Counted from the first letter of the stretch, positions 116 to 56,605 are shown. The stretch is 64,000 nucleotides of DNA from Comamonadaceae bacterium (GCA_043777675.1 JAYWHR010000065.1:9992-73991), one strand, 5' to 3'. Program-made: numbers and translations. The notes: a model not told the origin generated them from the letters alone.

Positions 116-1537
116 CTACTGCAATACACCCCGCCTTTGCGCCACCACTTCTGAAGCACTCACAGCATGGGCTTGATTGCCCCAACCCGCGCGGATATAA
201 GTGGCTACAGCAGCAATATCTTCATCGGTGAGCACATGAACGAAAGGCGGCATGCCATAGGGGTGAGGGTTGCCTAGGGTAGCGGGCGCGTAGCCGCCGG
301 CCAAGATAATTCGCACAAGGTTGGCACTGCTAGCTAGGCTGACGGCGCGGTTGCCCGAAAGAGCAGGAATTTTTGTAACGGATGGCGCCATGCCTGGCTG
401 GGCAAGTGCGTCTAGCTCTTGCAGGCCTTGGCCATCTGAGCCATGGCAGGTGGCGCAATATTTGCCGAAAAGTGCAGCGCCTTGGCCAAGCAATTGCTGT
501 GAGATTTTTGCGGCTCCCATACGTGGCGCGGGGCGCTCAGGCAGGCTTTGCAGATAAGCGGCAGCGGCATTCAAATCCTCATCGCGCCAATACTGCGTGC
601 TCTTGGCCACCACTTCGGCCATGGGGCCGAGAGCTGAGGCATTGTGCGTCGCGCCATTTTTGAGAAAAGCAATCACTTCGCTTCGCGGCCAATGTTGTAC
701 GCCGGCTTCCTCTTTCGCATGCAGCGATGGGGCATACCAATCTTGCATCGGCATCAGGGCGCCAGAGAGCAGGCCATCGCTGCTGGCTGCGCCCAGCGCA
801 TTGCGCTGCGCATGGCAAGCGCTGCAATGGCCGAGGCCGCTCACAAGATAGCGGCCTCTTTCCACTTCATTTTTAAAGGGTTTTGAGCCAGTAGCCGGCA
901 CAGAATATGCGTGAGAAGCTATTAATTTAGGAGTGTTCTCGATATCTCCAGCGCTAAAAAAGAGTACGCGCCACACCGCCAAAGCCAGCTGCGTGTTAAA
1001 CGGAAAGCCCAGCTCATGCTCACGGCTGGCCTGCGCAACAGGCTGCACGCCGAGCTGGAAATAGGCATACAGCGCATCGCTGTCAGCGCGGCTGATTTGG
1101 GTGTAATTCGGATAAGGAAAAGCGGGGGTGAGCAAGCGGCCTTGCGCATTCACGCCGTGCTTCATGGCACGATAAAAAGCATCAGCGCTCCACGCGCCAA
1201 TGCCATGCACAGGATCAGGCGTGATGTTGCTGGCGAAGACCGCGCCAAAAGGCGTGTGAATTGCCTTCCCGCCGGCGAATGGCTCGCCGCCTCGCGCGCT
1301 GTGGCAAGCAGCGCAGTTGCCTACTCTTGCTAGATACTCGCCTTGTGCAAGAGCCACATTTTTTTCTTCACTTTTAATACTTTTTTGGGCACTAGCCGGC
1401 ATATCTATTGATCTAAATGCTACTAATTCAATAGCAATCAGGCTGCACAACGTCAGCAGTAAAGCGGTAAGCGCAGCGCCTGCCACGATCAGGCAGCGCT
1501 TAGGCCATGAGGCCGTTTGCCAAAATTGCCGCTTCAT
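116..1537 (-). CDS. Membrane-anchored triheme cytochrome c (gluconate/alcohol dehydrogenase cytochrome subunit-like)
   Basis: Three CxxCH motifs (CAACH, CSACH, CATCH), N-terminal hydrophobic helix, NITPD and APSL motifs. Start moved to the ATG at 1537, which overlaps the upstream stop (ATGA). Confidence 0.85.
   Translation of the reverse strand: MKRQFWQTASWPKRCLIVAGAALTALLLTLCSLIAIELVAFRSIDMPASAQKSIKSEEKNVALAQGEYLARVGNCAACHSARGGEPFAGGKAIHTPFGAVFASNITPDPVHGIGAWSADAFYRAMKHGVNAQGRLLTPAFPYPNYTQISRADSDALYAYFQLGVQPVAQASREHELGFPFNTQLALAVWRVLFFSAGDIENTPKLIASHAYSVPATGSKPFKNEVERGRYLVSGLGHCSACHAQRNALGAASSDGLLSGALMPMQDWYAPSLHAKEEAGVQHWPRSEVIAFLKNGATHNASALGPMAEVVAKSTQYWRDEDLNAAAAYLQSLPERPAPRMGAAKISQQLLGQGAALFGKYCATCHGSDGQGLQELDALAQPGMAPSVTKIPALSGNRAVSLASSANLVRIILAGGYAPATLGNPHPYGMPPFVHVLTDEDIAAVATYIRAGWGNQAHAVSASEVVAQRRGVLQ
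892..934 (+). repeat. 43-bp interspersed repeat, copy 1 (in frame inside cytochrome c gene)
   Basis: tagccggcacagaatatgcgtgagaagctattaatttaggagt; gap-free match to the other copies; encodes TPKLIASHAYSVPAT on the minus strand. Confidence 0.85.
1393..1435 (+). repeat. 43-bp interspersed repeat, copy 2 (in frame inside cytochrome c gene)
   Basis: tagccggcatatctattgatctaaatgctactaattcaatagc; both ends conserved, middle diverged; encodes AIELVAFRSIDMPAS on the minus strand. Confidence 0.75.
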
Positions 1538-2274
1538 TTCACGCCGCCGCATTCAAGAGGCAATGGCAGAGGCAGAGCCAATGGCATTGGCAAGGCCGCA
1601 AGATTGGGTGCTGCAGATATGACGAGTTTGGCTTGAGGCACAGACTGCGCCGCCAGCCAGGTCACCACGGCGCTCACGTCTTCAGGCGTCAGTGTGCGAG
1701 CGATGCGCGCCATGCAATCTGGCGCTTGCGCCTTGCGAATGCCAGTTTGCCAAGCGCCGAGCTGCCCGGCCATATAGTCGCGCGGCAACCCGAGCAAGCC
1801 GGGAATGCTGGGCTGGGCAGTTGCATCGCCTACCAGTGCCGCACCGTGGCAGCTGGCGCAAGCTGCAATCCCCTTGCTGGCATCGCCCCGCAAGGCCAAT
1901 TGCTGGCCGCGCTGCATCACAGCAGCTGTTGTGCCACTGGGCGGCACTTGTGGCTCCGGGTAAGGTAATTGCAATTGCGCGAAATACTGAGCCATCTCCA
2001 TCAAAGCCGCATCGCTTTGATGCTCCACCAAGCCCACCATCAAGCCGTAATGCCGACGGCCATCGCGGAAATTCACGAGTTGGTTGTAGAGATAAAGCGC
2101 GGGCTTGCCAGCAATACGCGGAAAATACACTTCATTGGCTGTGCGCCCCACCGTAGCCGTAGAGCCAGCGCCATGGCATGTGGTGCAGGCTTGCATCCTT
2201 TTGGCAGCGCTTTGCGCGAAGCTGGAGTTAAGTGAAAGCGCACATACGAGCGCGAAAAGAAAGAAAGAATTCAC
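1534..2274 (-). CDS. Diheme cytochrome c4/c553 family protein
   Basis: Signal peptide, CTTCH and CASCH, PRIAGK..YLYNQL and P.L.GLPRDY motifs typical of c4. Confidence 0.85.
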   Translation of the reverse strand: MNSFFLFALVCALSLNSSFAQSAAKRMQACTTCHGAGSTATVGRTANEVYFPRIAGKPALYLYNQLVNFRDGRRHYGLMVGLVEHQSDAALMEMAQYFAQLQLPYPEPQVPPSGTTAAVMQRGQQLALRGDASKGIAACASCHGAALVGDATAQPSIPGLLGLPRDYMAGQLGAWQTGIRKAQAPDCMARIARTLTPEDVSAVVTWLAAQSVPQAKLVISAAPNLAALPMPLALPLPLPLECGGVK

Positions 2275-2318
2275 AGCCTAATGATAGCGCTGCACAAGCA
2301 CCGAGGGCTCGGGCAAGG

Positions 2319-3853: not shown

Positions 3854-3857
3854 TGCG

Positions 3858-4508: not shown

Positions 4509-4747
4509 GGCTTGATGTTACCCGTGCAGAAGCACAAGTTCTAAGAAATAAGACTGCATTTGTCTTTTTGCTTAGCGGCAACAGCCCACGAATCCGCGAA
4601 GCCGTGAGCGACAGCATTCATAATTTTTGTAGGCACACTGCCGTGCTAAATGTCACACTCCTCATCTGTTCTAGGGAGAGGCTCGTGTCAATGCACCAAT
4701 GATGTTCGGTATCATCAGTCCCTAGGGTTGCCACTACTTATCTACAA

Positions 4748-6500: not shown

Positions 6501-6508
6501 TTCGCATC

Positions 6509-27975: not shown

Positions 27976-28011
27976 GGCTTTTTAAGCTGATTTCAGTACA
28001 TTTTCAGTACC

Positions 28012-28054
28012 TAGCCGGCATCAATACTGCGTGAGCTGCTATTAATTCAGGAGT
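28012..28054 (+). repeat. 43-bp repeat, copy 3 (contains rph stop codon)
   Basis: tagccggcatcaatactgcgtgagctgctattaattcaggagt; close to copy 1. Confidence 0.85.
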
Positions 28055-28767: not shown

Positions 28768-28800
28768 GGTTTGGAGGGATGAAGGATAGAAATTCAATAC

Positions 28801-28970
28801 CGGACGCAGAAGACGCAAAGGTTACGCAGAAGTAATACCAAAAAGAAAAAGAAAAAGAAAAAGAAAAAAAAGAAATTAAGTTAAAGCCGAAGTTTCTCGT
28901 GCAAAAGCACGACTTTTTTGTATTTCTCTTTTTTACGTCTTCTGCGAAACCTTTGCGTCTGCTGCGTCCG
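28801..28970. repeat. Long palindromic element, copy A
   Basis: Arm CGGACGCAGAAGACGCAAAGGTTACGCAGAAG at 28801 and its inverted copy ending at 28970; A-rich left and T-rich right interior; inner TCGTGC/GCACGA hairpin. Confidence 0.9.
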
Positions 28971-28988
28971 GCTGTTTGTATTTAGAAT

Positions 28989-31930: not shown

Positions 31931-31972
31931 CTATCTTTTTGATAGCAGACTACGCATATTTTACGCCGGCTA
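31930..31972 (-). repeat. 43-bp repeat, copy 4 (abuts yicC stop)
   Basis: Reverse complement tagccggcgtaaaatatgcgtagtctgctatcaaaaagatagt. Confidence 0.78.
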
Positions 31973-32022
31973 TATGCCTTAAATGCTTTCAAAATCAGCT
32001 GAAACGTAGTTAAAATAAAGCT

Positions 32023-35636: not shown

Positions 35637-38453
35637 TCACGCTTTTTGTATTTTTACAGCGCAGTATTTGAATTCTGGGATTTTTCCAAACGGATCAAGC
35701 GCTGAATTGGTGAGCAAATTGGCAGCCGATTCTGCATAGGCGAAGGGAATGAACACCGTATTTACGGGCGTTCCTTCGTCGATGCGCACTTGAAGCACGA
35801 TGCTACCGCGCCGTGAGGCGACCCGCAAACTCTCCCCGGCTTTGACGCTTGCTTGCGTTGCTGTAGCGGCGCTCATCGATACTGTAGCTTCTGGCTCAAG
35901 AGCATCTAGCATGCTGGCGCGGCGCGTCATGGAGCCGGTATGCCAGTGCTCTAGCTGGCGGCCCGTGATGAGCACAACCGGATATTCATCGTCCGGCAAT
36001 TCGTTGGCGGGTATAAAGCCAGCGGGTACGAGTTTGATGCGGCCATCCTTGGTGGGTACGGCGTCTTGAAATACGATAGGCTGGCCTGGATCATCTTCTG
36101 TGAGGCACGGGTAGGTGACTGAGCCTTCTTTTTCAAGCCGCGCCCAAGTGATGCCAGCAATCGCAGTGTGCATCGCTTGACGCATTTCTTCATACACGGC
36201 ACTGGCACCGCTATCGTCGCTCTCGCCACTGCCTTGCGATTCATCATCAGCGCCCGCGTAATCCCAATGCAGATCTAAGCGTTTGGCAAGCTGCTGAATG
36301 ATCCACAAATCATGCTTGGCAGCGCCCGGCAGCGGCAAAGCTTGGCGGCCGAGCTGCACCATGCGATCTGTGTTGCTCACCGTGCCGGTTTTTTCTGGCC
36401 AAGCGCTGGCGGGAAGCACCACATCGGCAAGCCACGCGGTCTCGGTCATGAAAATATCTTGTACGACGAGATGCTCCAAGCTTTCCAGCGCGTGGCGTGC
36501 ATGCGACAGGTCAGGGTCGCTCATCGCGGGGTTTTCGCCCATGATGTACATGCCGCGAATCTTGTGAGGATCTGTCTCTGGCGCGAGGATCTTGTGCATG
36601 ATCTCCACCACGGTGTAGCCGGGTTTGTTATCAAGCTTGGTATCCCAGAAATTTTCAAACCACGCATGTGCCTCTTGGTTGTCCACGCGCTGGTAGTTGG
36701 GCAGCATCATCGGAATCAAACCCGCATCGCTTGCGCCCTGCACATTGTTTTGCCCACGCAGCGGATGCAAGCCTGTGCCGGGGCGGCCAATCTGCCCAGT
36801 GATTGTGGCGAGAGCAATCAAGCAGCGCGCATTGTCTGTGCCGTGCACATGCTGGCTCACGCCCATACCCCAGAGAATCATCGCGCTCTTGGCGGTGGCA
36901 AACGTGGTGGCGACTTCGCGGATCGTTGCCGCATCAATCCCGCAAGCTTGGCTTACAGCTTCCGGTGAAAAATTCGCGACCTGCGCTTTAAGCGCTTCAA
37001 AATTGGTAGCACGCTGCGCAATGAAATCGTCGGCCACCAGCCCTTTTTCTATGATGGTGTAGAGCATGGCGTTGAGCAGCAACACATCTGTATCTGGCTT
37101 GAATTGCAGGCTCTTCCAAGCGTGGCGTGCGATGTCGGTGCGGCGTGGGTCAGCCAAAATAATTTTGCTGCCTTCTTTCGCCGAATTCTTCATCCACGTA
37201 GCGGCCACGGGATGATTCGAGGTGGGATTGCTACCGATGATGAGGATCACTTCGCTGTGCGCCACGTCGTTCACCTGATTGCTTACCGCGCCTGAGCCTA
37301 CGCCTTCCAGCAGCGCGGCAACCGATGATGCATGGCACAAGCGCGTGCAGTGATCCACGTTGTTACTGCCAAATCCCGTGCGCACAAGCTTTTGGAAAAG
37401 ATAGGCTTCTTCGTTGCTGCCTTTGGCACTACCAAAGCCGGCAAGTGACTTTGCACCATATTGATCACGCAAACTCTTGAGCTTACCGCCCGCAAGATTC
37501 AAAGCTTCTTCCCAAGTCGCCTCACGAAATACCTCGCGCCAATCCGCATCATGCGGCAAGATGCTTTTCGGCACGCCAGGCTTGCGAATCAAAGGCTGCG
37601 TCAAGCGCCCATCGTGATGCACGTAATCAAAACCAAAGCGCCCTTTCACGCAGAGCCGCGAATCATTCGCCGGTCCTTTGCGGCCGTCCACGCTGACGAT
37701 TTTGTCGTCTTTGACGTTGTAAGTGATCAAACAGCCCACGCCGCAATACGGGCAGACCGAATCAATTTTTTTATCAACCTTCTGGGAGCCAACTTGCGTC
37801 TTTGGCATCAGCGCTCCGGTTGGGCAGGCCTGCACGCATTCGCCGCAGCCCACGCAACTGCTCTCGCCCATCGCATCAAACTGATCAAACACAATGCTTG
37901 AGTGGCTGCCGCGCTGTGCATAGCCAATCACATCGTTGACCTGAACTTCGCGGCAAGCGCGCACACAGCGCGTGCATTGAATGCAAGCATCCAGATTCAC
38001 CGCCATCGCAGGGTGAGAAAGATCGGCTTTAGGTTGCTCGCGCCGCAGCGCTCTCAATTCGGGGCGCACTTGAACATCCATCACGCTCGCCCACTCGCTC
38101 AGTTCGCCATGCGGCTGCGTTGCATCGTCTTCGTGCCATTTGTAGCCCTGCTCTGGCAAATCTGCGAGCAGCATCTCCAGCACCATTTTTTGGCTTTTTA
38201 CAGCGCGCTCGCTAGTCGCTTTGACCTGCATACCCTCAACGGGCGCGCGGCAGCAGCTCGGCGCGAGCACGCGCTCGCCCTCAACTTCCACCACACAAGC
38301 CCGGCAATTGCCATCGGCTCGCATCCCTTCTTTGAAGCACAGATGTGGAATCTCCACGCCGCTGCGCTTAGCCGCTTGCAAAATGCTCTCGCCGGGAATC
38401 GCCTGCACGGCTTTGCCATCGAGCTCAAAACTGATCACTTCGCGGGCGCTCAT
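35637..38453 (-). CDS. fdhF: NAD-dependent formate dehydrogenase, alpha (molybdopterin) subunit
   Basis: 2Fe-2S (CRAC..E..LAPSC), 2x[4Fe-4S], CPYCGVGC, DHCTRLCH (Cys ligand, no Sec), LRGQNNVQGASD. Confidence 0.9.
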   Translation of the reverse strand: MSAREVISFELDGKAVQAIPGESILQAAKRSGVEIPHLCFKEGMRADGNCRACVVEVEGERVLAPSCCRAPVEGMQVKATSERAVKSQKMVLEMLLADLPEQGYKWHEDDATQPHGELSEWASVMDVQVRPELRALRREQPKADLSHPAMAVNLDACIQCTRCVRACREVQVNDVIGYAQRGSHSSIVFDQFDAMGESSCVGCGECVQACPTGALMPKTQVGSQKVDKKIDSVCPYCGVGCLITYNVKDDKIVSVDGRKGPANDSRLCVKGRFGFDYVHHDGRLTQPLIRKPGVPKSILPHDADWREVFREATWEEALNLAGGKLKSLRDQYGAKSLAGFGSAKGSNEEAYLFQKLVRTGFGSNNVDHCTRLCHASSVAALLEGVGSGAVSNQVNDVAHSEVILIIGSNPTSNHPVAATWMKNSAKEGSKIILADPRRTDIARHAWKSLQFKPDTDVLLLNAMLYTIIEKGLVADDFIAQRATNFEALKAQVANFSPEAVSQACGIDAATIREVATTFATAKSAMILWGMGVSQHVHGTDNARCLIALATITGQIGRPGTGLHPLRGQNNVQGASDAGLIPMMLPNYQRVDNQEAHAWFENFWDTKLDNKPGYTVVEIMHKILAPETDPHKIRGMYIMGENPAMSDPDLSHARHALESLEHLVVQDIFMTETAWLADVVLPASAWPEKTGTVSNTDRMVQLGRQALPLPGAAKHDLWIIQQLAKRLDLHWDYAGADDESQGSGESDDSGASAVYEEMRQAMHTAIAGITWARLEKEGSVTYPCLTEDDPGQPIVFQDAVPTKDGRIKLVPAGFIPANELPDDEYPVVLITGRQLEHWHTGSMTRRASMLDALEPEATVSMSAATATQASVKAGESLRVASRRGSIVLQVRIDEGTPVNTVFIPFAYAESAANLLTNSALDPFGKIPEFKYCAVKIQKA

Positions 38454-40195
38454 TGCACAACTCCAACGCTAATCTCATGCGAGAAGTATTTCAAAACGCT
38501 CAGCATCGGGTTCGGCGCAGCCTGCCCCAAGCCGCAAATGCTGGCATCCACCATCACAGTGCTTAAATCATTCAGCGTGGCTTGATCCCACACTTTCGCC
38601 TCCATCAGCTTCACAGATTTCTCCGTGCCCACGCGGCAAGGCGTGCATTGCCCGCAGCTCTCATGCGCAAAAAATTTCATCATATTGAGCGCGCCATTTC
38701 GCGCTGAATCCTGCTGACTCAACACGATCACCGCCGCGCTGCCAATGAAGCAACCATAGGGCTGCAGAGTATCAAAATCGAGTGGCACATTGGCCAGCGC
38801 TGCCGGCAAAATGCCGCCGCTCGCACCGCCCGGCAAGTAGGCATACAGCTCATGGCCATCCGCCATACCGCCACAGAATTCATCAATCAATTCGCGCACG
38901 CTGATGCCAGCAGGAGCCAACTTCACGCCCGGCTGCTTCACACGCCCGCTCACGCTAAAACTGCGCAGCCCCTTTCGGCCATTCCTGCCATGCGAAGCAA
39001 ACCATTCACCGCCTTTTTCCACAATCTCGCGCACCCAATACAGCGTTTCAAAGTTGTGCTGCAGCGTCGGCCGGCCAAACAAGCCCACTTGCGCAATATA
39101 CGGCGGCCGCATGCGCGGCTCACCGCGTTTGCCCTCAATGCTCTCAATCATCGCGCTCTCTTCGCCGCAGATATACGCACCCGCACCGCGCCGCAGTTCA
39201 ATTGTGGGCAGCTTGCATGGCGGATTCATTTGTAGCTTGGCGATTTCTGCGCTCAGCATCTCGCGCAGCTCATGGTATTCATCGCGCAGATAAATATAAA
39301 TCGCGTCAATGCCCACCACCTGCGCGGCAATCAACATGCCTTCTAAAAACCGATGCGGATCACGCTCCAGATACCAACGGTCTTTGAATGTGCCCGGTTC
39401 GCCCTCGTCAAGATTAATAGCCATGAGCTTAGGACTTGGTTGATCACGAACGATCCGCCACTTGCGCCCCGCCGGAAAACCCGCACCACCCAAACCGCGC
39501 AAGCCTGCATGCTCCAGCGCCGCAATCACACTCTCAGCATCGCGCGAACCATCCGCCACAGAACGCAGCAGCGCGTAGCCACCAGCAGCTTGGTAGTTAT
39601 TTAACGCTATTAAATCAATAGCGCTCTGCGCATGTTCTATGCCGGCTAGATGCTGTTTTTGCCCTAAAAACTGCTGAAAAATGTCTATGGAGGCATGCCC
39701 GAAATTCCGCTGCCCCACGGCCACCGCAGGCGCTTGCTCGCAGCGCCCAATGCAAGGCACCGGCTCAACTTTCACATCCGCTTGCAGCAGCGCGGGCAGC
39801 TCAGCCAGCAGCTCATTCGAGCCAGCCATCTCGCAGCTCAGTCCATTGCACACTCGAATCCGTAAACTTGGCGCGGCTTCGGCATCCCGCAAAATTTCAA
39901 AGTGATGATAAAAAGAAGCGACCTCAAACACTTCGGCCTGCGATAGTTTCATCAGATCCGCCAGTGCAGCGATATGCCGTTCAAACACCGCGCCATACGC
40001 GTCGTTCAAAGCATGCAAATATTCAATCAGCAAATCCCGCCTGAACAACTGCTCTGATGTGCCTGGCCACACTTTCTGCATCAGCGCACGCACCTGTTCG
40101 CGCGCCTGCGGCAATACCTGCCGCCCCTTCAATTGCGAGCGCACTGGATGCGTCTTGTGAACCGTGATTGGTTTGACTTCAACAATAGTTTTCAT
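38450..40195 (-). CDS. Formate dehydrogenase beta subunit (NuoE-like + NuoF-like fusion)
   Basis: EVASFY, CNGLSC, CIGRC; GLRGLGGAGF, DEGEPG.FKDR, GAGAYICGEE, HESCGQCTPCR, CGLG. Confidence 0.88.
   Translation of the reverse strand: MKTIVEVKPITVHKTHPVRSQLKGRQVLPQAREQVRALMQKVWPGTSEQLFRRDLLIEYLHALNDAYGAVFERHIAALADLMKLSQAEVFEVASFYHHFEILRDAEAAPSLRIRVCNGLSCEMAGSNELLAELPALLQADVKVEPVPCIGRCEQAPAVAVGQRNFGHASIDIFQQFLGQKQHLAGIEHAQSAIDLIALNNYQAAGGYALLRSVADGSRDAESVIAALEHAGLRGLGGAGFPAGRKWRIVRDQPSPKLMAINLDEGEPGTFKDRWYLERDPHRFLEGMLIAAQVVGIDAIYIYLRDEYHELREMLSAEIAKLQMNPPCKLPTIELRRGAGAYICGEESAMIESIEGKRGEPRMRPPYIAQVGLFGRPTLQHNFETLYWVREIVEKGGEWFASHGRNGRKGLRSFSVSGRVKQPGVKLAPAGISVRELIDEFCGGMADGHELYAYLPGGASGGILPAALANVPLDFDTLQPYGCFIGSAAVIVLSQQDSARNGALNMMKFFAHESCGQCTPCRVGTEKSVKLMEAKVWDQATLNDLSTVMVDASICGLGQAAPNPMLSVLKYFSHEISVGVVQ
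39606..39648 (-). repeat. 43-bp repeat, copy 5 (in frame in FDH beta)
   Basis: Reverse complement tagccggcatagaacatgcgcagagcgctattgatttaatagc; encodes LAGIEHAQSAIDLIA. Confidence 0.9.
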
Positions 40196-43441: not shown

Positions 43442-44755
43442 TCAGTAAGTTTCTAAGTGCAAACGCGCTTCTTTTTTCAGGGCGCTGCCAATCGTATCCC
43501 AGCTGAATCCTGATTTTTCAGCGATGTCTTTGAGCGCAAGGATCACGCCCTCTTCCATTGCTTTCAAGCCACAAACATAGAAGTAAGCATTGGGGTCTTT
43601 CAGCAAGACGGCGAGATCGACGGCGCGGTCGCGCAGGGCATCTTGCACATAGCGTTTGGGTTTGCCGGATTCGCGGGAATAGCAAAATTCAATATCGATG
43701 AAATCTTTGGGCAGCTGCTGCAGCGGGCCGAAATACGGGAGCTCTGCTTGGGAGCGTGCGCCAAAGAAGAGCCAGAGTTTCCCACCGTCAAATTTGCTTT
43801 CACTGGCCGTATTTTTTGCGCGCATGCGCCTGCGCCACTCCGTCATGGCGCGCATCGGGGCGCTGCCTGTGCCGGTGCAGATCATCACGATGTGGCTCTT
43901 GGGGTGATTGGGCATGAGGAAGCTACTCCCGAAAGGGCCGATGACTTCAACCTGATCTCCCACCTTCAAATCGCACATGAAGTTGCTCGCCACGCCGCGC
44001 ACGGCTTTGCCACTGTGATCTTCGAGCACACGCTTGATCGTGAGCGAGAGATTGTTGTAACCCGCACGCTCGCCGCTGCGTGCGCTGGCAATCGAATACT
44101 GCCGAGCATGATGCGGCTTGCCGCGCGCATCCACGCCCGGCGGCACGATGCCGATGCTCTGCCCCTCGAGCACGGGGAACGGCATGCTGCCAAAATCGAG
44201 CACGATGTGGTGCGTGTCGTAATCACTGCCTGCCGTCTTACCGACTTCGGTGACGCGCACATTGCCTGTGACGCTGGCTGTGATGCTTTTTTCAGCCGCT
44301 TTCGCGCCATAAAGATTCGTGTACGCAAGGGCGGCAGACCATGGCGGCAGCGTTGCGCCATATTGTTGGTTGCTGATAGACGCTATGGTTTCGATAGCTG
44401 TCTGCGCAGGTTCTATGCCGGCTAATGGCCTATTTTCTTCTGAAACGGCACTGGAAATTTCCTCCTCAGCCAAAGCAGCTTCGGGCAACTCCTCTGGCAA
44501 ATCATCCCAAGTCAGCTGCTCTTCGACTGAATACGCTTTGACTTTCAGCATGCTGCGCCAATTGTCAATTGAGCCCGTAGGACAAGGCGAAATACAAGCC
44601 ATGCAAGAGTTGCACTTCTCGGCATCCACCACGTAGTTTCGATCATCATGCGTGATCGCCCCCACGGGGCAAGTGGCTTCGCAAGTGTTACAGCGAATAC
44701 AAATGACCGGATCGATCAGATGCTGTTTGATGATGGATGTTTCGTTAGCGCCCAT
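43442..44755 (-). CDS. boxA: Benzoyl-CoA epoxidase reductase component A
   Basis: KQHLIDP..CIRCNTCE..CP, second ferredoxin motif, RQYSIAS, CTGTGSAP, VCGL, ETY end. Confidence 0.93.
   Translation of the reverse strand: MGANETSIIKQHLIDPVICIRCNTCEATCPVGAITHDDRNYVVDAEKCNSCMACISPCPTGSIDNWRSMLKVKAYSVEEQLTWDDLPEELPEAALAEEEISSAVSEENRPLAGIEPAQTAIETIASISNQQYGATLPPWSAALAYTNLYGAKAAEKSITASVTGNVRVTEVGKTAGSDYDTHHIVLDFGSMPFPVLEGQSIGIVPPGVDARGKPHHARQYSIASARSGERAGYNNLSLTIKRVLEDHSGKAVRGVASNFMCDLKVGDQVEVIGPFGSSFLMPNHPKSHIVMICTGTGSAPMRAMTEWRRRMRAKNTASESKFDGGKLWLFFGARSQAELPYFGPLQQLPKDFIDIEFCYSRESGKPKRYVQDALRDRAVDLAVLLKDPNAYFYVCGLKAMEEGVILALKDIAEKSGFSWDTIGSALKKEARLHLETY
44382..44424 (-). repeat. 43-bp repeat, copy 6 (in frame in boxA)
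   Basis: Reverse complement tagccggcatagaacctgcgcagacagctatcgaaaccatagc; encodes LAGIEPAQTAIETIA. Confidence 0.88.
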
Positions 44756-44784
44756 GAGTTTTAAGTCCTTGAAGACATGAACAC

Positions 44785-44930
44785 CGGACGCAGAAGACGC
44801 AGAGGTTACGCAGAAGAAATACCAAAGAGAAAAAAAGAAACGGTGTCTTCAAATCAAACCCATTCAATTTTAAATCCCGTCTTCTGTCTTTTTTGCGTCT
44901 TTTGCGTAACCTTCGCGTCTTCTGCGTCCG
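44785..44930. repeat. Long palindromic element, copy B (boxB-boxA gap)
   Basis: Same 32-bp inverted arms as copy A, different interior. Confidence 0.9.
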
Positions 44931-44959
44931 GTATTGAATTCGTACTATTTCCTATTGAA

Positions 44960-46384: not shown

Positions 46385-46485
46385 GAATTGCTCGATTTAA
46401 AAACAACGGTGGAGTTAGTTCGGTTACAGCAAGCCACCTGCCTTGCTGCACAACGAGATTTTTTAACTTCTAAATACATGAATAC

Positions 46486-46618
46486 CGGCCGCAGAAGACG
46501 CAAAGGTTACGCAGAAGGGATACCAAAAAATACCAAGACTGATGTTTCAAAAAAATCCTCTTTCTTGGATTTTCTTTTTTGTATTTTTTCTGCGTAACCT
46601 CTGCGTCTTCTGCGTCCG
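46486..46618. repeat. Long palindromic element, copy C (boxC-boxB gap)
   Basis: Same 32-bp inverted arms, shortest interior. Confidence 0.9.
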
Positions 46619-46637
46619 GCTGTTTGTATTCAAAACC

Positions 46638-48296
46638 TCAAACACGATTCCAATCGAAAACCGCCTTATCGCCCTTGCCATAAACCTTCAAAGCCCCCTT
46701 CTCTCCCACGGCGTTAGGCCTCTGAAAGATCCAGTTTTGCCAAGCAGTCAAGCGGCCGAAGACGCGGGTGGCCATGGTCTCTACGCCGTTGAAGCGCAGA
46801 TTGGCTTCCAAGCCTGTGAGTGCATCTGGGCTCATGGCCATGCGCTCTTCTAAAGCGATGCGCACTTCGTCTGCCCAATCAATATCATCTGGATTGGCGG
46901 TCACCAAGCCCAGTGCAAAGGCTGCATCTGCATCCAGCGGCTGGCCTGCCACAGCGCGCACGGCATCGAGCGCAGGCGCTTCGCTGTAGAAGCGGCGCTG
47001 CAAACGGCTTTCGCGCGTTGCCATCGGGTAGAGGCCAAAATTCACATCGCTCACAGTGATCTTCGGCGCTTTGGCTTCATAATCTGGCAAAGCGAGGTGA
47101 TATGCGCGGTCACAAGCCAAGCTCAGCTCTAAGAAAGTGCCTGCAAAGCACGAGCCGGGTTCGATGAAAGCGAAGAGGCTACGGGAAGATACATCAATGC
47201 GGCTGAAGGTGCGGCGTAGCATTCCGATGGTCTCGCGCACGAACCAATGATCCTTATTGGCCATCAGCACAGCATCCATCGCGAGCACTTTAGCGGCGTC
47301 GCCTTCGGTTTTGAAAATCCAAGTGCCAATGTCCAGCTCATTGGTGCGCATTTGCAAAATGGCATCATCCAGCTCACGCGCCAGCACGAAGGGATACCAA
47401 TTCGATGCTGCATTTTCGATAGCGGCTACGGTAGATTCCACGCCGGCTGTTGGCGCTTTAACTATAAAAGTAGCAAGGCGCTTAGCGCGATCAATCTCTA
47501 CCGTCACGTTGCCATAGCGCAATGCATCAGCTTCAATCGTGCAATTCAATGGTGTGAGTGCCACGCCTTTTGCGCCAGCAGGTCGGTCGCTCTTCTCAGC
47601 CAATTCTGCTGCTCGCTTTTGCACAGCCTCGTTAAATTGCGCGGGCTTCACAGCCTGATCCACCAAGCGCCATTCCACAGCTTTCTTGCCGCGCACGCCT
47701 TCAACACTGGTGCAAAAAATATCAGCCAAATCATGGCGTACTTTGCGTTTGTCTGTCACGCGGGTGAGGCCGCCGGTGCCGGGCAACACGCCGAGCAGTG
47801 GCACTTCAGGCAAGCTCACAGCGCTGGCGCGGTCGTCTACCAAAATGATTTCATCGCAAGCCAGCGCCACTTCATAGCCGCCACCTGCGCATGCCCCGTT
47901 CACAGCAGCAATGAATTTGAGGCCGCTGTATTCGGAAGAATCTTCCAAACCATTGCGCGTCTCGTTGGTGAATTTGCAGAAATTCACTTTCCATGCGTGG
48001 CTCGATACGCCAAGCATGAAAATATTGGCGCCCGAGCAAAACACTTTTTCCTTTGCGCTGGTGAGCACCACGGTGCGCACTTCAGGATGCTCGAAGCGGA
48101 TGCGATTAATTGCATCGTTCAACTCAATGTCGACACCGAGGTCATAGCTGTTGAGTTTGAGCTTATAGCCGGGGCGAAGGCCAGCGTTTTCATCGAAGTC
48201 GGCTTTGAGCGTGGCCACTGCGCCATTGAACTCCAATTTCCAATGTTTGTATTGGCTAGGCTCGGTGCGGTAGTTAACGCGAAGTTCGTTGCTCAT
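46638..48296 (-). CDS. boxC: 2,3-epoxybenzoyl-CoA dihydrolase
   Basis: KLNSYDLGVDIEL, CKFTNETRN, LPEVPLLGVLPGTGG, GRLTAWQNWIFQRPNA. Confidence 0.95.
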   Translation of the reverse strand: MSNELRVNYRTEPSQYKHWKLEFNGAVATLKADFDENAGLRPGYKLKLNSYDLGVDIELNDAINRIRFEHPEVRTVVLTSAKEKVFCSGANIFMLGVSSHAWKVNFCKFTNETRNGLEDSSEYSGLKFIAAVNGACAGGGYEVALACDEIILVDDRASAVSLPEVPLLGVLPGTGGLTRVTDKRKVRHDLADIFCTSVEGVRGKKAVEWRLVDQAVKPAQFNEAVQKRAAELAEKSDRPAGAKGVALTPLNCTIEADALRYGNVTVEIDRAKRLATFIVKAPTAGVESTVAAIENAASNWYPFVLARELDDAILQMRTNELDIGTWIFKTEGDAAKVLAMDAVLMANKDHWFVRETIGMLRRTFSRIDVSSRSLFAFIEPGSCFAGTFLELSLACDRAYHLALPDYEAKAPKITVSDVNFGLYPMATRESRLQRRFYSEAPALDAVRAVAGQPLDADAAFALGLVTANPDDIDWADEVRIALEERMAMSPDALTGLEANLRFNGVETMATRVFGRLTAWQNWIFQRPNAVGEKGALKVYGKGDKAVFDWNRV

Positions 48297-48363: not shown

Positions 48364-49296
48364 TTATTGAATTTCAACCACGGGCAGGAGCAATTTTTGA
48401 AGCAAGCCAAAGCTCTCATTCAAGCCTTGCGCACTCGTGTTGAGCGTGAAATCAGCTTTGGAATAGAAGGCAGTGCGGCCTGCCAGAATGCTCTTCAAAT
48501 CATCCAACGCCTCTTTGCTGGCCGCCATCGGGCGCATGTCGCCCTGCGCTTGCACGCGCTGCAAATGCTCTTGCGGCTCGGCTTGAAGCCAAACGCTGGT
48601 GCAGTGCGTGAGCACGGTATTGAATGTGCTCACATCGCTCACCAGCCCGCCCGGCGTAGCGATCACGCATTGCGCATGCTGGGCAATCAGCGCATCGAGT
48701 GCGCGGCGCTCATAGCGGCGATATGCCGTCACGCCATACAGCGCCTGAATCTCCGCCACGGAAGTGCCTGCCAACTTCTCAATCTCTCTGCTCATCTCAA
48801 AAAACGGGTATTTCAACGTCTGCGCAAGCATCTTGCCCAGCGTGGATTTACCTGCCCCGCGCAGGCCGATCAAAGCGATTCTCTGAGACCGTTTTTGGCC
48901 AGTAGCCGGCATAGAATCTGCGCGAGGCGCTCCTAAATATGTAGCAATGTTCAACCGAAGGTGTTTCAGTTGCACCTCATCCGCGTTTTCCAACAGTTTG
49001 CGCAGCATCAGCCATTCGGGGTTGCTTGTGGTCAAGTCGCCATGCAGCTCGGCCAGCGGGCATTCCAGCGCATCGGCCACCTGCTGCAAGATCAAAATCG
49101 AGGCATTGCCCACGCCATATTCCAAATTGGCCAAATGCCGCTCAGACACATCAGCAGCGGCGGCCAGCGCCTTGCGCGTTAGCCCCCGGCGCGAGCGCTG
49201 GCTGCGCACGCGCTCGCCCAGAGCTACCAAAAACGGGTTTTTGGCCTCTGGCTCGTCAGCTTCAGCAGCATCAACATGCAATATATTGCTTGACAT
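48364..49296 (-). CDS. boxR: BoxR/BzdR-type regulator (XRE HTH + shikimate-kinase-like domain)
   Basis: GLTRKALA..ADVSERHLANLE.G.GN; IALIGLRGAGKSTLG; position in box cluster. Confidence 0.87.
   Translation of the reverse strand: MSSNILHVDAAEADEPEAKNPFLVALGERVRSQRSRRGLTRKALAAAADVSERHLANLEYGVGNASILILQQVADALECPLAELHGDLTTSNPEWLMLRKLLENADEVQLKHLRLNIATYLGAPRADSMPATGQKRSQRIALIGLRGAGKSTLGKMLAQTLKYPFFEMSREIEKLAGTSVAEIQALYGVTAYRRYERRALDALIAQHAQCVIATPGGLVSDVSTFNTVLTHCTSVWLQAEPQEHLQRVQAQGDMRPMAASKEALDDLKSILAGRTAFYSKADFTLNTSAQGLNESFGLLQKLLLPVVEIQ
48903..48945 (+). repeat. 43-bp repeat, copy 7 (in frame in boxR)
   Basis: tagccggcatagaatctgcgcgaggcgctcctaaatatgtagc; encodes ATYLGAPRADSMPAT on the minus strand. 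Confidence 0.88.
49277..49290. promoter_or_regulatory. Possible second BoxR site (TGCA-N6-TGCT) at the boxR/bclA divergence
   Basis: tgcaatatattgct overlapping boxR codons 3-7. Confidence 0.3.
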
Positions 49297-49383
49297 GGGG
49301 TGATTTCAGGATTTATAGTTCAACTGGAATTATTTTGCATCAGAACAGATAACCCGTCAAACCAAGGGCTTGAGGAGACAACC

Positions 49384-50979
49384 ATGCAACAGCACACACC
49401 AGCGCCCCCGGCGCAGTTCAATTTCGCCGCCGATTTGATCGCCGCCAACGCGGCCCGCCCCAATAAAGTCGCTCTCATCGACGATGCTCTCTCGCTCACC
49501 TATGGCCAGCTTGCAGAGCAAATCAAAAGTACCGCTGCCGGCCTGCTAAACGCTGGCTTGCGCCGTGAAGAGCGCGTCTTGCTCCTGATGCACGATTGCA
49601 GCGATTGGGTCGTCTCCTTCCTCGGCTGCTTGTATGCGGGCGTGGTTCCCGTGGCGGTTAACACGCTGCTCACACCGGAAGACTACGCTTATATGCTGCA
49701 ACACAGCCGCGCCCAAGCGGCCTTGGTCTCTGGTGCGCTCGTGCCTGCACTGCAAGGCGGCATGCAACTCGCTTCGCAAAATGGCGGGCATGAAATCAAG
49801 GCAATTTATGTTTCCCGTGCAACTGCCGATCTGCCAGTGAGCTACAGGGCTTGGAGCACGTTGCTTGAAGCTGCGCCCTTGAGCAAGCCTTGCCCCACAT
49901 ACGCCGATGAAGCCGCCTTCTGGCTCTATTCTTCAGGCTCCACAGGCCGCCCCAAAGGCACTGTTCACACCCATGCCAATGCGTTTTACACCGCAGAGTT
50001 GTATGGCAAAGGCGTTTTGCAAATCACCGAGAAGGATGTGTGCTTCTCCGCCGCCAAGCTCTTCTTTGCTTATGGCTTAGGTAACGGCCTGAGCTTCCCG
50101 CTCGCCGTGGGCGCCACCGTGATTTTGATGGCCGAGCGGCCCACGCCGGATGCCGTCTTTAAACGCTGGAAAGGGCAGCTAGCCGGCATGAAATCTATCA
50201 AGCCTACTATCTTTTTCGGAGCACCCACAGGTTTCGCTGGCATGCTTGCTGCGCCCAATCTCCCAGCTAAAAACGAAGTGGCGTTGCGCATGTGCTCCAG
50301 CGCCGGCGAAGCCCTGCCCGCAGACATTGGCCAACGGTTTGAAAAACACTTCGGTGTACAAATCATCGATGGCATCGGCTCCACCGAAATGCTACATATC
50401 TTTTTATCCAACCAACCCGGCAAAGTCCGTTACGGCACCACGGGATGGGCTGTGCCCGGATATCAGGTTGAACTCAGAGGAGAGGGCGGTGGCGCTGTGC
50501 CCGACGGCGAGCCCGGTGAGCTCTACATCCAAGGCCCCACGGCTGCTCTCATGTATTGGCAAAACAGAGAAAAATCTCGCAACACTTTTCAAGGCGAATG
50601 GACGAAAAGCGGCGACAAATACGTCAAAAACTCTGACGGCTCATACACCTACTCAGGCCGCAGCGACGACATGCTCAAGGTCAGCGGTATCTACGTCTCT
50701 CCCTTCGAGGTGGAAGCCACACTCGTGCAACACAGCGCCGTGTTAGAGGCCGCCGTCATCGGCAAAGAAGATCACGAGGGGCTTACAAAAACCAAAGCCT
50801 TCGTCGTCTTAAAAGACGGGCATTCGGCCACCGAAGAAGAACTCAAAGCCTTCGTCAAAGGCCTTCTCGCGCCCTACAAATATCCGCGCTACATTGAGTT
50901 TGTGCGCGAATTGCCCAAGACGGCGACGGGGAAGATTCAGCGGTTTAAATTGCGAGATTTGGAAGCTTCGCGTCATTGA
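49384..50979 (+). CDS. bclA: Benzoate-CoA ligase
   Basis: FNFA.DL, LYSSGSTGRPKG, KLFFAYGLGN, DGIGSTE.LHIF, KTATGKIQRF. Confidence 0.9.
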   Translation: MQQHTPAPPAQFNFAADLIAANAARPNKVALIDDALSLTYGQLAEQIKSTAAGLLNAGLRREERVLLLMHDCSDWVVSFLGCLYAGVVPVAVNTLLTPEDYAYMLQHSRAQAALVSGALVPALQGGMQLASQNGGHEIKAIYVSRATADLPVSYRAWSTLLEAAPLSKPCPTYADEAAFWLYSSGSTGRPKGTVHTHANAFYTAELYGKGVLQITEKDVCFSAAKLFFAYGLGNGLSFPLAVGATVILMAERPTPDAVFKRWKGQLAGMKSIKPTIFFGAPTGFAGMLAAPNLPAKNEVALRMCSSAGEALPADIGQRFEKHFGVQIIDGIGSTEMLHIFLSNQPGKVRYGTTGWAVPGYQVELRGEGGGAVPDGEPGELYIQGPTAALMYWQNREKSRNTFQGEWTKSGDKYVKNSDGSYTYSGRSDDMLKVSGIYVSPFEVEATLVQHSAVLEAAVIGKEDHEGLTKTKAFVVLKDGHSATEEELKAFVKGLLAPYKYPRYIEFVRELPKTATGKIQRFKLRDLEASRH

Positions 50980-51212
50980 GCGTACATTGGTAGTACGCTG
51001 TGGCCTGAGATGACTGAAATCGGGCGCCCTCATGGTGGAGTACCACAAATCGGTCGCCCAATTTCAGTCATCTCAGACCGTCTTGTACAACGCGACCGGC
51101 TACGAGCGAAGACCTTTCGAGTAGCCAACAGGCCGCGAGTGTGAGGCTTTGCGACTGACCGATTTGTGGTACTCCACCATGAGGGCAGGCGCAAAGCCTC
51201 ACACTCGCAGCC
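50979..51212. repeat. Multi-hairpin intergenic element with 30-bp perfect inverted repeat
   Basis: Stems 50979-85/50993-99, 51005-20/51061-76, 51098-103/51121-26, 51135-53/51190-208. Sequence 51026-51055 is the exact reverse complement of 51157-51186. Confidence 0.8.
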
Positions 51213-51251
51213 GCTCTATCCACGCAGCCATCAACAGCCAGCCAACAACCT

Positions 51252-52364: not shown

Positions 52365-52426
52365 CGCCGAACGCCGTCTCACCAAGCCCTGCGCGACAAT
52401 CTGCCATCGCAATTTAGGAAACCCCC

Positions 52427-53215: not shown

Positions 53216-53230
53216 TCTGCATTCCTGTGC

Positions 53231-53273
53231 ACTACTAAATCAATAGCGCTCCACGCTGTATTTATTCCGGCTA
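53231..53273 (-). repeat. 43-bp repeat, copy 8 (intergenic, after bdhA)
   Basis: Reverse complement tagccggaataaatacagcgtggagcgctattgatttagtagt. Confidence 0.8.
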
Positions 53274-53341
53274 TGCAGCCAAAAAGCCTTAAAAATCCAC
53301 TAAAAAATCTGCTCAGCGGCGCAAATCAGCGCCACTGAACT

Positions 53342-54430: not shown

Positions 54431-54529
54431 AAGGTCTGCTAATTCGATGTTCGATGAAAGGGGGAATCGCTTGAGTGTACAGAAGCCCCATAAAATCAGG
54501 GATTCCCCCGATAAGAACTGCTCCTCGCC

Positions 54530-56605
54530 ATGTCAGCCAAACGCCAACTTTTCGTCACCACCGCCCTACCGTATGCCAACGGCAAATTCCACATCGGCCA
54601 CATCATGGAATATATTCAGGCTGATATTTGGGTGCGTTTCCAGCGGATGCAGGGGCATGACGTAAATTTTGTGTGTGCAGACGATGCACATGGCGCGCCG
54701 ATCATGATCGCAGCTGAAAAGGCTGGTAAAACACCGCGCCAGTTTGTGGACGACATTGCCGCTGGCCGCAAAGAATACTTAGATGGCTTTCACATCAGCT
54801 TCGACAACTGGAGCCACACCGACAGCGAAGAAAACCACGAACTGTGCCAAACCATTTATCAAGACCTAGACAAAATGGGCCTGATCGGCAAGAAAAGCGT
54901 AGAGCAGTTTTTCGATCCAGAGAAAAACATGTTTTTGCCAGACCGCTTCATCAAAGGCGAATGCCCCAAATGCGGCACCAAAGATCAGTATGGCGACAAC
55001 TGCGAAAACTGCGGCGCAGTGTATGCCCCCACCGATCTGAAAAATCCGTATTCCGCGCTCAGCGGCACCACGCCAATTCTCAAAAGCAGCGACCACTATT
55101 TCTTCAATTTGTCTGACTCTCGCTGCGTGGAATATCTAGAGAACTGGACGCAAGACGGCAAACTACAACCCGAAGTAGCCAACAAAGTCAAAGAATGGTT
55201 TTCAGTACGCACCAACCAAGACGGCAGTACGTCTGAGGGTTTAGCTGACTGGGACATCTCCCGCGACGCGCCCTATTTCGGCATCGAGATTCCCGGCGCG
55301 CCTGGTAAATATTTCTATGTGTGGTTTGACGCACCGATTGGTTATTTGGCATCGCTCAAAAATCTGCTCAATGAACGTGGTCAGGATTTTGATGCTTACA
55401 TCGCACCTAGTTCAGCAGTTGAGCAATACCACTTCATCGGCAAAGACATCGTTACGTTTCACACGCTCTTCTGGCCAGCAGTATTGAAGTTCAGCGGCCG
55501 CAAGACGCCGAATAACGTGTTTGTGCACGGCTTCCTCACCGTCAACAACGGTGAAAAAATGAGCAAGAGCCGTGGCACGGGTCTCGATCCTTTGAAATAC
55601 CTCGGCTTGAGTATGAACCCAGAATGGCTGCGCTATTACTTGGCCACCAAGCTGTCTGCACGCAATGAAGATATTGATTTCAACGCAGAAGATTTCATGC
55701 TGCGGGTGAATAGTGATTTGATTGGCAAGTATGTAAATATTGCGAGTCGTGCTGCTAAGTTTTTACCCAACGGCGCGCTGGCAGCATTTACGGATGATTC
55801 GCCGCACAAGTCGGGTGATCTACTCAAAAACGTTCGCGGCTTTTACGAAGAGCGTGAATATGGCAAAGCGCTGCGCGAGATCATGACGTTTGCTGACAGC
55901 GTGAATTCGCGATTCGATGGCGCTGCACCTTGGAAGCTCGTTAAAGAAGGCAAGGCAGAGCTTGCTGCAGAGAAAAGCTCGGAAGCCATTCAAATGTTTC
56001 GCATCATGAGCGCATGCTTGAAGCCGGTGATGCCTAGCGTTGTTGCGGCCGTTGAAAAATTTCTGCAATGTGAATCGCTCAGCTTTGAAAACGCAAGCCA
56101 GCCCTTGCCCATCGGCCACCGCGTGGGCAATTATGAGCACCTCATGCAACGCGTCACCTCAGAGCAACTTTCAAGCCTTTTTGAGCCTCCAGCCGGCATA
56201 GAATCTGCGCAAGTCGCTATTGAATCAGTAGCATCATCATTGCCCGGTGGCGAAGCGATTGCACAGAGCATCACGATTGACGACTTCGCCAAAATCGATC
56301 TGCGCATCGCCAAAATCGTTAACTGCGAAGCCGTGGAAGGCTCAACCAAGCTGCTGCGCTTGACGCTGGAAGTGGGCGAAGGCAAAACGCGGAACGTCTT
56401 CAGTGGCATCGCCAGCATGTACAAACCCGAGCAGCTCGTGGGCAAGCTGACGGTGATGGTGGCCAATCTCGCGCCGCGCAAGATGAAATTCGGCATCAGC
56501 GAAGGCATGGTGCTCGCAGGCAGCCATGCCGATGAAAAAGCCACGCCCGGTATTTACATCCTAGAGCCCTTCCCCGGCGCGCAACCAGGCATGCGCGTGC
56601 GTTAA
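54530..56605 (+). CDS. metG: Methionine-tRNA ligase
   Basis: ALPYANG..HIGH, Zn knuckle [25 protein letters not shown]-terminal tRNA-binding domain. Confidence 0.97.
56190..56232 (+). repeat. 43-bp repeat, copy 9 (in frame in metG)
   Basis: cagccggcatagaatctgcgcaagtcgctattgaatcagtagc; encodes [15 protein letters not shown]. Confidence 0.88.

Follow-up and report, generated by a model that had tools for sequence, protein, structure and literature searches.

A 64,000-nucleotide stretch of the genome of a Comamonadaceae bacterium (GCA_043777675.1, JAYWHR010000065.1:9992-73991; hereafter called the window) carries a family of short repeats, some of which are located inside genes for conserved enzymes. 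We conclude that this repeat is a vertically inherited genomic sequence tag and not a transposing element. It is a composite motif of double-stranded DNA, about 60-80 bp in length and present at approximately 820 fixed sites in the genome, in which helically phased A/T tracts are joined to a 5′ core specific to the lineage and to the older blocks TGCGC-N5-GCTA-N9-TAGC. Members of the genus share these sites as orthologues, and some sites are likewise shared between genera. The sites occupy intergenic DNA and the tolerant parts of about 400 coding positions, where overprinting by the motif draws linker peptides toward the patterns ..VAGIE.AQSAI..IA.. or ..AI..IA..ADSMPA.. in the encoded proteins. 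Each species has its own dialect of the motif, which is followed by all sites of a genome and has changed in concert at orthologous sites. The best single explanation for this behavior, to which we give somewhat less than even confidence and which is drawn by analogy, is a DNA uptake signal similar to the uptake signal sequences (USS) of Pasteurellaceae and the DNA uptake sequences (DUS) of Neisseriaceae.

Alignment of the flanks of all occurrences of the sequence TAGCCGGCAT in the genome that contains the window (draft, 3.65 Mb, 54% GC, 82 contigs; hereafter G000) reveals that the conserved unit is about 80 bp, longer than the 43 bp originally noted, and extends from about position -33 to +46 around the T of TAGCC. 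The unit begins with A/T tracts centered near positions -31, -20 and -10, whose spacing corresponds to one helical turn, followed by GGCC and then by TAGCCGGCATAGAAT.TGCGC.....GCTAT.AAATT.ATAGC. Among copies that score at least 25 bits, the motif contains approximately 66 bits of information across 86 positions. The core TAGCCGGCAT is the top-ranked 10-mer of the genome, with 314 copies (147 as written and 167 as the reverse complement) versus four for a reversed control, and the 3′ half of the motif, TGCGC-N5-GCTA-N9-TAG, is present 338 times versus twice for its control. When a profile built from the genome's own motif copies was used to search the genome with nhmmer, 820 copies were recovered at E<0.01, or about one per 4.5 kb, which is far above chance.

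The ends of the motif carry no terminal inverted repeats, and its only symmetry is an internal 5+5 palindrome. The 17-bp imperfect palindrome reported earlier is present, but its arms do not covary in a compensatory manner. The pairs formed between the arms GCTAT and ATAGC are T-A (288), T-G (135), C-A (69) and C-G (25), and at stem positions 30 and 38 the 25 observed C-G pairs compare with about 28 expected. An RNA element was rejected on these and related grounds, namely the absence of orientation bias, the absence of a match to the motif in Rfam, inconsistent folding (z-scores range from -4.2 to +1.1) and the lack of stem covariation. The same facts speak against a single-strand hairpin.

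Mutual information between motif positions is high only for neighbors, and a search for long-range linkage by this measure found none, so the family lacks subfamilies. The A/T tract at positions -11 to -9 is either AAA or TTT, and neither version is fixed throughout the family. Each site retains its own state when G000 is compared with G010, another genome of the same genus, wherein identity is 95-100% at positions -10 and -9 and 76% at position -11. The fact that the AAA or TTT state is kept site by site fits a structural requirement on double-stranded DNA. More generally, the overall pattern fits a position-by-position constraint on double-stranded DNA, including its bendability, that is imposed by one reader per genome.

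Using a gene set of 3,136 genes (87% coding) obtained from rough open reading frame and codon-usage calls, we found that 404 of the 820 copies (49%) are inside coding sequences (CDSs), 358 (44%) are intergenic and 58 lie across gene ends. Random positions are distributed as 84%, 10% and 6%, respectively. Judged by the intergenic share, the motif is thus about four-fold enriched between genes, yet about 400 copies are coding. Intragenic copies are divided almost equally between the coding strand (206) and the opposite strand (198), and most occupy a single open frame (330 of 404 overall), which is the dominant frame for 178 of the coding-strand copies and 152 of the opposite-strand copies. The open frames of the consensus read VFAVFLKQNRPVAGIESAQSAIKLIAIK and LIAINLIALCADSMPATGLFCFKNTAKT, and in either orientation the consensus has stop codons in two of its three frames. 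The proposal that each orientation uses one frame is accurate, but this preference arises because stop codons in the consensus block the other two frames.

Intergenic copies show no preferred orientation relative to transcription when they are located between tandem genes (113 same versus 100 opposite). They are somewhat enriched between convergent genes and are depleted in divergent spacers. Counts per 10 kb are more even than a Poisson distribution would give (mean 2.26, variance 1.67), and compositionally atypical 10-kb bins carry modestly fewer copies (1.59 versus about 2.4 in typical bins). Searches of plasmid records (72,556) and of phage records (50,697) gave no match to the motif. Orientation shows no polarity with respect to the sign of GC skew in the genome, nor is there polarity along the complete chromosome of a member of another genus (G135), where the two orientations are intermixed. 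A polar motif of the Chi or KOPS type (KOPS, FtsK orienting polar sequence) was rejected on both counts. Separately, the region between 2.0 and 3.0 Mb of the G135 chromosome has about three-fold fewer motifs (13 strict matches, versus about 17 per 0.5 Mb elsewhere), and this drop could be caused by the terminus region or by large islands.

All nine of the 43-bp copies first noted in the window are present, with profile scores of 37.9-67.5 bits. Six of them are located in CDSs as had been stated, and this becomes nine of 12 when three weaker copies are counted, two of which were detected with the profile (50153-50225 and 63000-63074) and one, which is degenerate, by a repeat search (about 47405-47480). 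The copy-free stretch that had been noticed around the O-antigen cluster is also real, since positions 1435-28012 (26.6 kb) are empty and form the second-longest gap in the genome. NCBIfam models confirm the identities of the window genes for BoxA, BoxC, a BoxR-type regulator, a formate dehydrogenase (FDH) beta subunit of the NuoE/NuoF type, benzoate-CoA ligase and PurH. The copies and the motif-free region are as follows.

861-937, plus strand: motif in a minus-strand gene for cytochrome c (116-1552), translated in the reverse open frame; 46.5 bits.
1371-1440, plus strand: second motif in the same cytochrome c gene, directly after the membrane anchor; 37.9 bits.
1441-27978, no strand: motif-free 26.6 kb with rml/TA genes and the O-antigen cluster; GC 0.506.
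27979-28058, plus strand: motif that covers the final codons of rph (RNase PH; 28042-28818, minus strand) and part of the adjoining spacer; 49.3 bits.
31926-32004, minus strand: motif directly 3′ of the yicC stop codon (yicC, 30926-31930); 40.9 bits.
39603-39681, minus strand: top-scoring copy of the window, in the formate dehydrogenase beta-type subunit (38450-40195) at its NuoE/NuoF junction; 67.5 bits.
44377-44456, minus strand: motif in the ferredoxin/reductase linker of BoxA (43442-44755); 57.3 bits.
47405-47480, minus strand: degenerate motif in BoxC (46638-48296), from the repeat search.
48884-48948, plus strand: motif at the linker of a BoxR-type regulator encoded at 48364-49296 (minus strand), translated in the reverse frame; 51.3 bits.
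50153-50225, plus strand: weak motif, 5′ half, in benzoate-CoA ligase (49300-50979); 24.5 bits.
53227-53305, minus strand: intergenic motif between convergent genes; 34.2 bits.
56165-56235, plus strand: motif in MetG (54530-56605), in the linker that precedes the C-terminal tRNA-binding domain; 44.7 bits.
63000-63074, plus strand: weak motif in the interdomain linker of PurH (62046-63635, minus strand); 26.5 bits.

Evidence for vertical inheritance comes from orthologous sites within the genus. We compared six intragenic loci of the window (FDH beta, BoxA, BoxC, BoxR, benzoate-CoA ligase and MetG) with syntenic DNA in which both flanks could be located, using five to 10 genomes of the same genus per site, with flank identities of 71-89%. 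At these six loci, the length between the flanks is the same or differs by a few codons in every genome, and the motif or a remnant of it is present there. Neither empty sites nor indels the size of the element were found. For example, the between-flank length at the FDH beta site is 79 in all eight genus genomes, among which the motif differs in dialect. The BoxA site is orthologous in eight genus genomes (nine loci), with between-flank lengths of 77-89, and the length at the BoxR site is unchanged in eight of nine genomes. At the MetG site the motif is found throughout the genus. The intergenic locus at 53231 is the only window copy that varies in length between species (31-662 nt). One of the genus genomes, G004, apparently has two box (benzoyl-CoA oxidation) clusters (contigs C123 and C133, loci L117 and L118), and the BoxA site of each carries the motif.

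Conservation of position extends well beyond the window. A 400-kb portion of G010 has 129 profile matches, and 53 of the 73 that are mappable fall on a copy in G000. Sites that appeared to be present in G010 and missing from G000 were rejected as flank-mapping artifacts in hypervariable linkers, because the motif is present in both genomes at the sites inspected. In variable, low-complexity linkers the flanks cannot be aligned, and the motif is still a conserved island in both genomes. The core 14-mer, with at most one mismatch, occurs in all 14 other genus genomes in 10-334 copies, versus the background of zero to five copies observed in other genera.

Although the sites are shared, the sequence of the 5′ core differs between lineages. 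The version GCCGGCATAGAA is found at orthologous sites in G000, G004, G005, G011, G013 and G014, and the version GCCGTTATAGAA is found in G007, G010 and partly in G002. A third variant, TCGCC/TTGCC, is used by G008, and the 5′ core of G009 is degenerate. The genome-wide counts of CCGTTATAGAA are 143 in G010, 96 in G007, 24 in G002 and at most eight in each of the remaining genus genomes. Among 21 orthologous pairs of the same length in G000 and G010, positions 6-7 are GC in G000 (100% and 95%) and TT in G010 (76% for each). Pairwise identity at these two positions is 19-24%, versus 85-100% at the most conserved motif positions and about 50-70% at positions outside the motif. Because the G010 copies were retrieved with the G000 profile, any retrieval bias works against seeing a difference in dialect.

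A tree for the genus, based on only three box-cluster genes, groups G007 with G010 and places G002 beside G000. Given the position of G002, the dialect shift was not a single clean event. On sequence grounds, bias from methylation or deamination is an unlikely cause of the dialects and was rejected, as was avoidance of restriction, since the change from GC to TT needs a G-to-T transversion and the product is identical at many sites.

Related motifs are found in other genera of the Comamonadaceae, for which the comparison genomes include many metagenome-assembled genomes (MAGs). The MetG protein of G000 places the genome in this family, and its nearest named relatives are from Polaromonas, Hylemonella, Albidiferax, Rhodoferax and Curvibacter, with at most 79% identity. 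The 3′ half TGCGC-N5-GCTA-N9-TAG is over-represented in about 25 of 120 other genera (12-118 copies versus zero to three for the control). In these genera the architecture consists of an A/T tract, GGCC, a core of the form (T/C)AGC(C/G)C, about 10 variable bases, TGCGC, five further bases, GCTA, an AT-rich stretch and TAGC, and the 5′ core varies by genus (for example, CCAGCCCTCGTGGAATA and TAGCGCCCGTA). Strict-pattern counts are 62 in Polaromonas sp. CG9_12, 18-20 in two Acidovorax genomes and zero in two Limnohabitans genomes. A MAG labeled Acidovorax facilis has its own core dialect, (T/C)AGCGCTTG.

The MetG linker provides a test of insertion at this greater distance, because the initial annotation held that finding the same peptides at these positions in orthologues from distant taxa would refute it. 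The motif is present in that linker, in the local dialect, in Acidovorax facilis, Polaromonas, Curvibacter, Simplicispira, Rhodoferax and Albidiferax. Thus, MetG orthologues of at least six other genera carry a related peptide and a related DNA motif at the same linker, which is the refuting observation in the case of MetG. In Limnohabitans, Hydrogenophaga and Comamonas the linker is eight to nine residues shorter and is without the motif. The peptide LFEPPA, which is encoded by the T-tract part of the MetG copy, is conserved in all of these genera, indicating that part of what had been taken for an element in MetG is ancestral coding sequence.

Comparisons with more distant proteins also bear on whether the motif was inserted or arose in place. 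The BoxC protein aligns with that of Burkholderia xenovorans (Protein Data Bank (PDB) 2W3P) without gaps through the motif, wherein ATFIVKAPTAGVESTVAAIENAASNWYP of G000 matches ATFTAKAPQTEPPASIDAIVAAGANWWP. The equivalent position in G005 holds a motif that is close to perfect (59.6 bits) and encodes KAPVAGIEYAPSAIESVASNWY, and in other species the site is a mosaic, with varying combinations of 5′ core, TGCGC block and ATAGC block. As read from these sequences, the mosaics represent stepwise accretion in place. Alignment of the FDH beta subunit with PDB 7E5Z requires gaps of only 3+3 residues across the motif.

To extend this comparison we used 800 kb of the chromosome of Limnohabitans sp. DCL3, in which the profile has no matches, as an outgroup. 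A total of 52 G000 proteins with an intragenic copy were globally aligned to their Limnohabitans homologues, and the difference in length was scored in a 27-residue window at the motif. The sites are distributed as follows.

Length difference within ±3 residues: 19 of 52 sites (nine exactly 0).
Length difference of 4-9 residues: 10 of 52 sites.
Length difference of 10-19 residues: 12 of 52 sites.
Length difference of 20 or more residues: 6 of 52 sites.
Length difference below -3 residues: 5 of 52 sites.

Among control windows of the same proteins, 83% are within ±3 residues and 1.6% differ by at least 10 residues. Identity to the Limnohabitans orthologues is 18.5% in the motif window versus 50% overall. 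These results indicate that the copies are located in indel-prone, poorly conserved segments. Because about one-third of the sites are in longer loops, the motif is also associated with added peptide.

The clearest insertion-like case is FabH, which has 21 extra residues located eight residues before the active-site cysteine. The corresponding loop is four residues long in most genera, 12 in the nearest genera, where it holds the proto-motif GCCGCCGGTATAGC, and 25-26 in G000 and one other genus. This series of loop sequences suggests that growth was stepwise and did not result from one insertion. Across Comamonadaceae genera, lengths of 4, 12, 15 and 25-26 residues were recorded for the loop (contig C28:31164-32216 in G000), and the G000 version carries a full motif copy, QYFEQKAGVAGINAAQGATKSIA.

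Taken together, these comparisons suggest that motif instances arise and persist largely in place, through substitutions and small indels. The original description of an element resembling the Rickettsia palindromic elements (RPEs) was correct in that the family is real and abundant and is found in frame within genes, at variable linkers and loops. The part that proposed a short mobile or self-copying inserter is not supported, given that no empty sites were found in the genus genomes examined, that BoxC is ungapped, that 19 of 52 sites have no net length change and that the reading frames are forced. The related suggestion that the repeat adds new peptide to conserved enzymes is supported for about one-third of sites, where the loops exceed those of the outgroup by at least 10 residues, but about another third are pure overprints.

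What kind of system could maintain such a motif? The pattern points to one sequence-specific reader that would act genome-wide, and by analogy this reader would most likely be the DNA-uptake machinery of natural transformation. Under this mechanism, uptake and recombination would favor fragments with the preferred motif, and the motif would accumulate in the genome and track shifts in receptor preference, as USS and DUS do. G000 encodes ComEC, DprA, type IV pilus genes and a minor pilin of the ComP_DUS family that adjoins pilY1. Three other species of Comamonadaceae, Verminephrobacter eiseniae, Acidovorax temperans and A. facilis, undergo natural transformation via type IV pili (PMC4212676). 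A. temperans was transformed by DNA of its own species only, and competition data for V. eiseniae suggested selective binding, although no uptake sequence was identified (PMC4212676).

The resemblance to established uptake signals is broad. Published accounts of these signals (PMC2817400, PMC3630211, PMC2397512) describe their equal presence on both strands, in genes and spacers, and in tolerant segments, as well as forced reading frames, orthologous sites with a dialect for each species, regular spacing, scarcity in foreign DNA, an origin in place and a core with phased A/T tracts. Like USS and DUS, the Comamonadaceae motif has hundreds of copies on both strands, in and between genes, and its intragenic copies favor particular frames and poorly conserved segments. 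Both also share orthologous sites, lineage dialects, even spacing, rarity in foreign DNA and a possible origin by substitution in place, and, as in USS, the core is flanked by helically phased A/T tracts. Judged by sequence, the motif appears to have most of the features expected of an uptake signal, except for the length of its core.

Several observations weigh against an uptake signal. At about 60-80 bp and approximately 66 bits, the motif is far larger than the 9-12 bp cores of known USS and DUS (about 30 bp with flanks). Its density of one per 4.5 kb is several times lower, and Acidovorax genomes, with strict counts of about 20, seem to have too few copies for an obligatory uptake tag. About one-third of intragenic sites are tied to loops that are longer by at least 10 residues, for which point mutation alone is insufficient, and this too is unlike USS and DUS. 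Moreover, competence genes were found to be near-universal, and a pilin of the ComP_DUS family is encoded in 110 of 120 genera, both those with the motif and those without it. A ComP/PilE-type pilin was examined as a candidate dialect-matched receptor, and no correlation with dialect was found in the identity of the pilin to the G000 protein (60% in G010 and 38% in G007, both of the GTT dialect, 62% in G005 of the GGC dialect, 36% in G002 and 34% in G014). The receptor could be a protein other than a ComP-type pilin. Finally, every feature described here is also compatible with an intracellular DNA-binding reader.

The PilE/ComP_DUS minor pilin downstream of pilY1 (contig C24:84224-84646) is itself hypervariable in the genus, with 34-84% identity compared with 73-90% for MetG. 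This variability suggests cassette-like exchange.

The main rival is such an intracellular reader. The copies would form an array of binding sites for an abundant chromosomal DNA-binding protein or complex, for example one that is nucleoid-associated or of the gyrase/IHF type, as has been considered for repetitive extragenic palindromic (REP) sequences and bacterial interspersed mosaic elements (BIMEs). Purifying selection would maintain regular spacing, and the dialect would follow the specificity of the protein. We regard this as unlikely, although it fits all of the features shown. Phased A/T tracts and several blocks spread over 60-80 bp are typical of DNA wrapping or bending, and sites that are more evenly spaced than random, unbiased in orientation and strongly conserved between species would all be expected of an array. 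It would also accommodate densities that differ widely between genera and are in some cases too low for an uptake tag. However, it is hard to see why about 400 sites would have been pressed into genes, to the detriment of the proteins, when intergenic DNA is available, and a 66-bit site is far more specific than the known sites of nucleoid proteins. It is also difficult to see how selection alone would re-tune hundreds of selected sites from GC to TT in a coordinated manner without loss of function. A candidate protein for this role was not identified.

A less probable possibility is that an ancient element, similar to an RPE or a MITE (a miniature inverted-repeat transposable element), spread in the ancestor of the clade and is now immobile, with its copies homogenized by gene conversion. 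This would be the original proposal set further back in time. Its appeal lies in the sites that have grown, since 18 of 52 have at least 10 extra residues relative to Limnohabitans (six of them at least 20), and FabH and several clean gaps of 21-25 residues look like insertions. Copy number also differs widely between genera, and gene conversion does yield concerted evolution. Against these points, no empty site was found in the genus, and length is unchanged in BoxC and at 19 of 52 sites, with homologous residues through the motif. The loop of FabH lengthened stepwise (4, 12 and 25 residues), and BoxC is represented by block-wise mosaic intermediates across species. The absence of subfamilies and of linkage between distant positions argues against lineages of transposing master copies, and the site-specific AAA or TTT state, in copies whose other positions follow the consensus, argues against copy-to-copy conversion.

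Signs of mobility are likewise missing, in that the motif has no terminal inverted repeats (TIRs), no plasmid or phage copies and no related transposase. A MITE was rejected because TIRs are absent and because no presence/absence polymorphism was seen in the genus genomes examined. The initial annotation saw no transposase in the window, and none is linked to the repeat in the genome. The sole Y1_Tnp gene (C16:1051-1383) is equipped with TIRs of its own, no copy of the motif lies within 6 kb of it, and a link to a REP-associated tyrosine transposase (RAYT) or an insertion sequence (IS) was rejected on this basis. This gene, the only Y1/HUH transposase gene of the genome (PF01797, 51 bits; contig C16:1020-1720), carries inverted repeats GGTCAGATACCATTTAATTT... 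and is flanked by neither the motif nor the second repeat family described below. It resembles a TIR-associated tyrosine transposase.

The third rival, in which selection acts at the protein level on a peptide module (..AGIE.AQSAI..IA..) and the likeness in DNA is secondary, is effectively refuted: the MetG linker peptide is conserved across genera and a peptide consensus is recognizable in both orientations, but intergenic copies make up 44% of the total, unrelated peptides are encoded equally often by the two orientations, and it is the nucleotide sequence that is conserved, with third codon positions and dialect bases included.

Other classes of bacterial repeats share some of these properties. 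Like the motif, RPEs are short repeats found in frame in conserved protein genes, at surface or linker positions, without a transposase of their own. RPEs are insertions that are absent from orthologues, whereas no empty sites were found for the motif, which replaces residues one for one in many proteins, is intergenic in half of its copies and changes in concert at orthologous sites. REP/BIME sequences and the REPIN-RAYT system (REPINs, pairs of REP sequences) resemble the motif in being abundant short repeats with a species-specific consensus and a (G/A)TAGC-like sequence, which are enriched in convergent and tandem spacers and depleted in divergent ones. However, REPs are extragenic hairpins with compensatory stems and a cognate RAYT gene flanked by REPs, whereas 49% of motif copies are intragenic and the stem shows no covariation. 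The highly iterated palindromes of cyanobacteria (HIP1) are also over-represented both in and outside genes and keep orthologous positions without transposition. In contrast to the long, asymmetric and composite motif, HIP1 is a palindrome of 8 bp with a presumed link to methylation and repair.

Two further repeats were observed in the window. A second, unrelated family at 28784-28987, 44768-44947, 46469-46635 and 60142-60337 consists of intergenic palindromes of about 130-200 bp with arms of about 33 bp (CCGGACGCAGAAGACGCAAAGGTTACGCAGAAG). The 12-14-mers of its arms have about 150-180 genomic copies, directly below the motif in frequency, and this family looks REP/REPIN-like or MITE-like. A third repeat, at 51000-51223, is composed of nested inverted repeats in the spacer that separates the benzoate-CoA ligase gene from the following one. 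Additional copies of about 100-220 bp were detected by BLAST in this and other genomes of the genus.

No known bacterial repeat class fully accounts for the behavior of the motif, and we found neither a description of this family in the literature searched nor any report that links uptake sequences to Comamonadaceae. In the papers found, sequence-specific uptake signals are known for Pasteurellaceae and Neisseriaceae only, a restriction that has stood for decades, and a recent survey still treats no other family (bioRxiv 10.1101/2025.10.24.684340). A more specific proposal, which we make more tentatively than that of an uptake signal in general, is that a clade of Comamonadaceae would be the third family to have one. 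Its signal would be of unprecedented length, a composite and helically phased sequence of 60-80 bp with species dialects, and the resulting drive would overprint about 400 coding sites and lengthen loops, including the one beside the active site of FabH.

Whatever the reader may be, a 66-bit motif is held at about 800 orthologous sites, has been rewritten in concert between sister lineages and is imposed on enzymes. This finding also serves as a caution that in-frame repeats within genes are not necessarily insertions. If the motif is an uptake signal, it would be a candidate for the cause of the unexplained preference of Acidovorax and Verminephrobacter for DNA of their own species, and it would offer a practical tag for genetic work in this group. 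It would also represent a third independent uptake system, in common freshwater and soil Betaproteobacteria, that would test how far uptake-driven molecular drive can reach into genomes and proteins.

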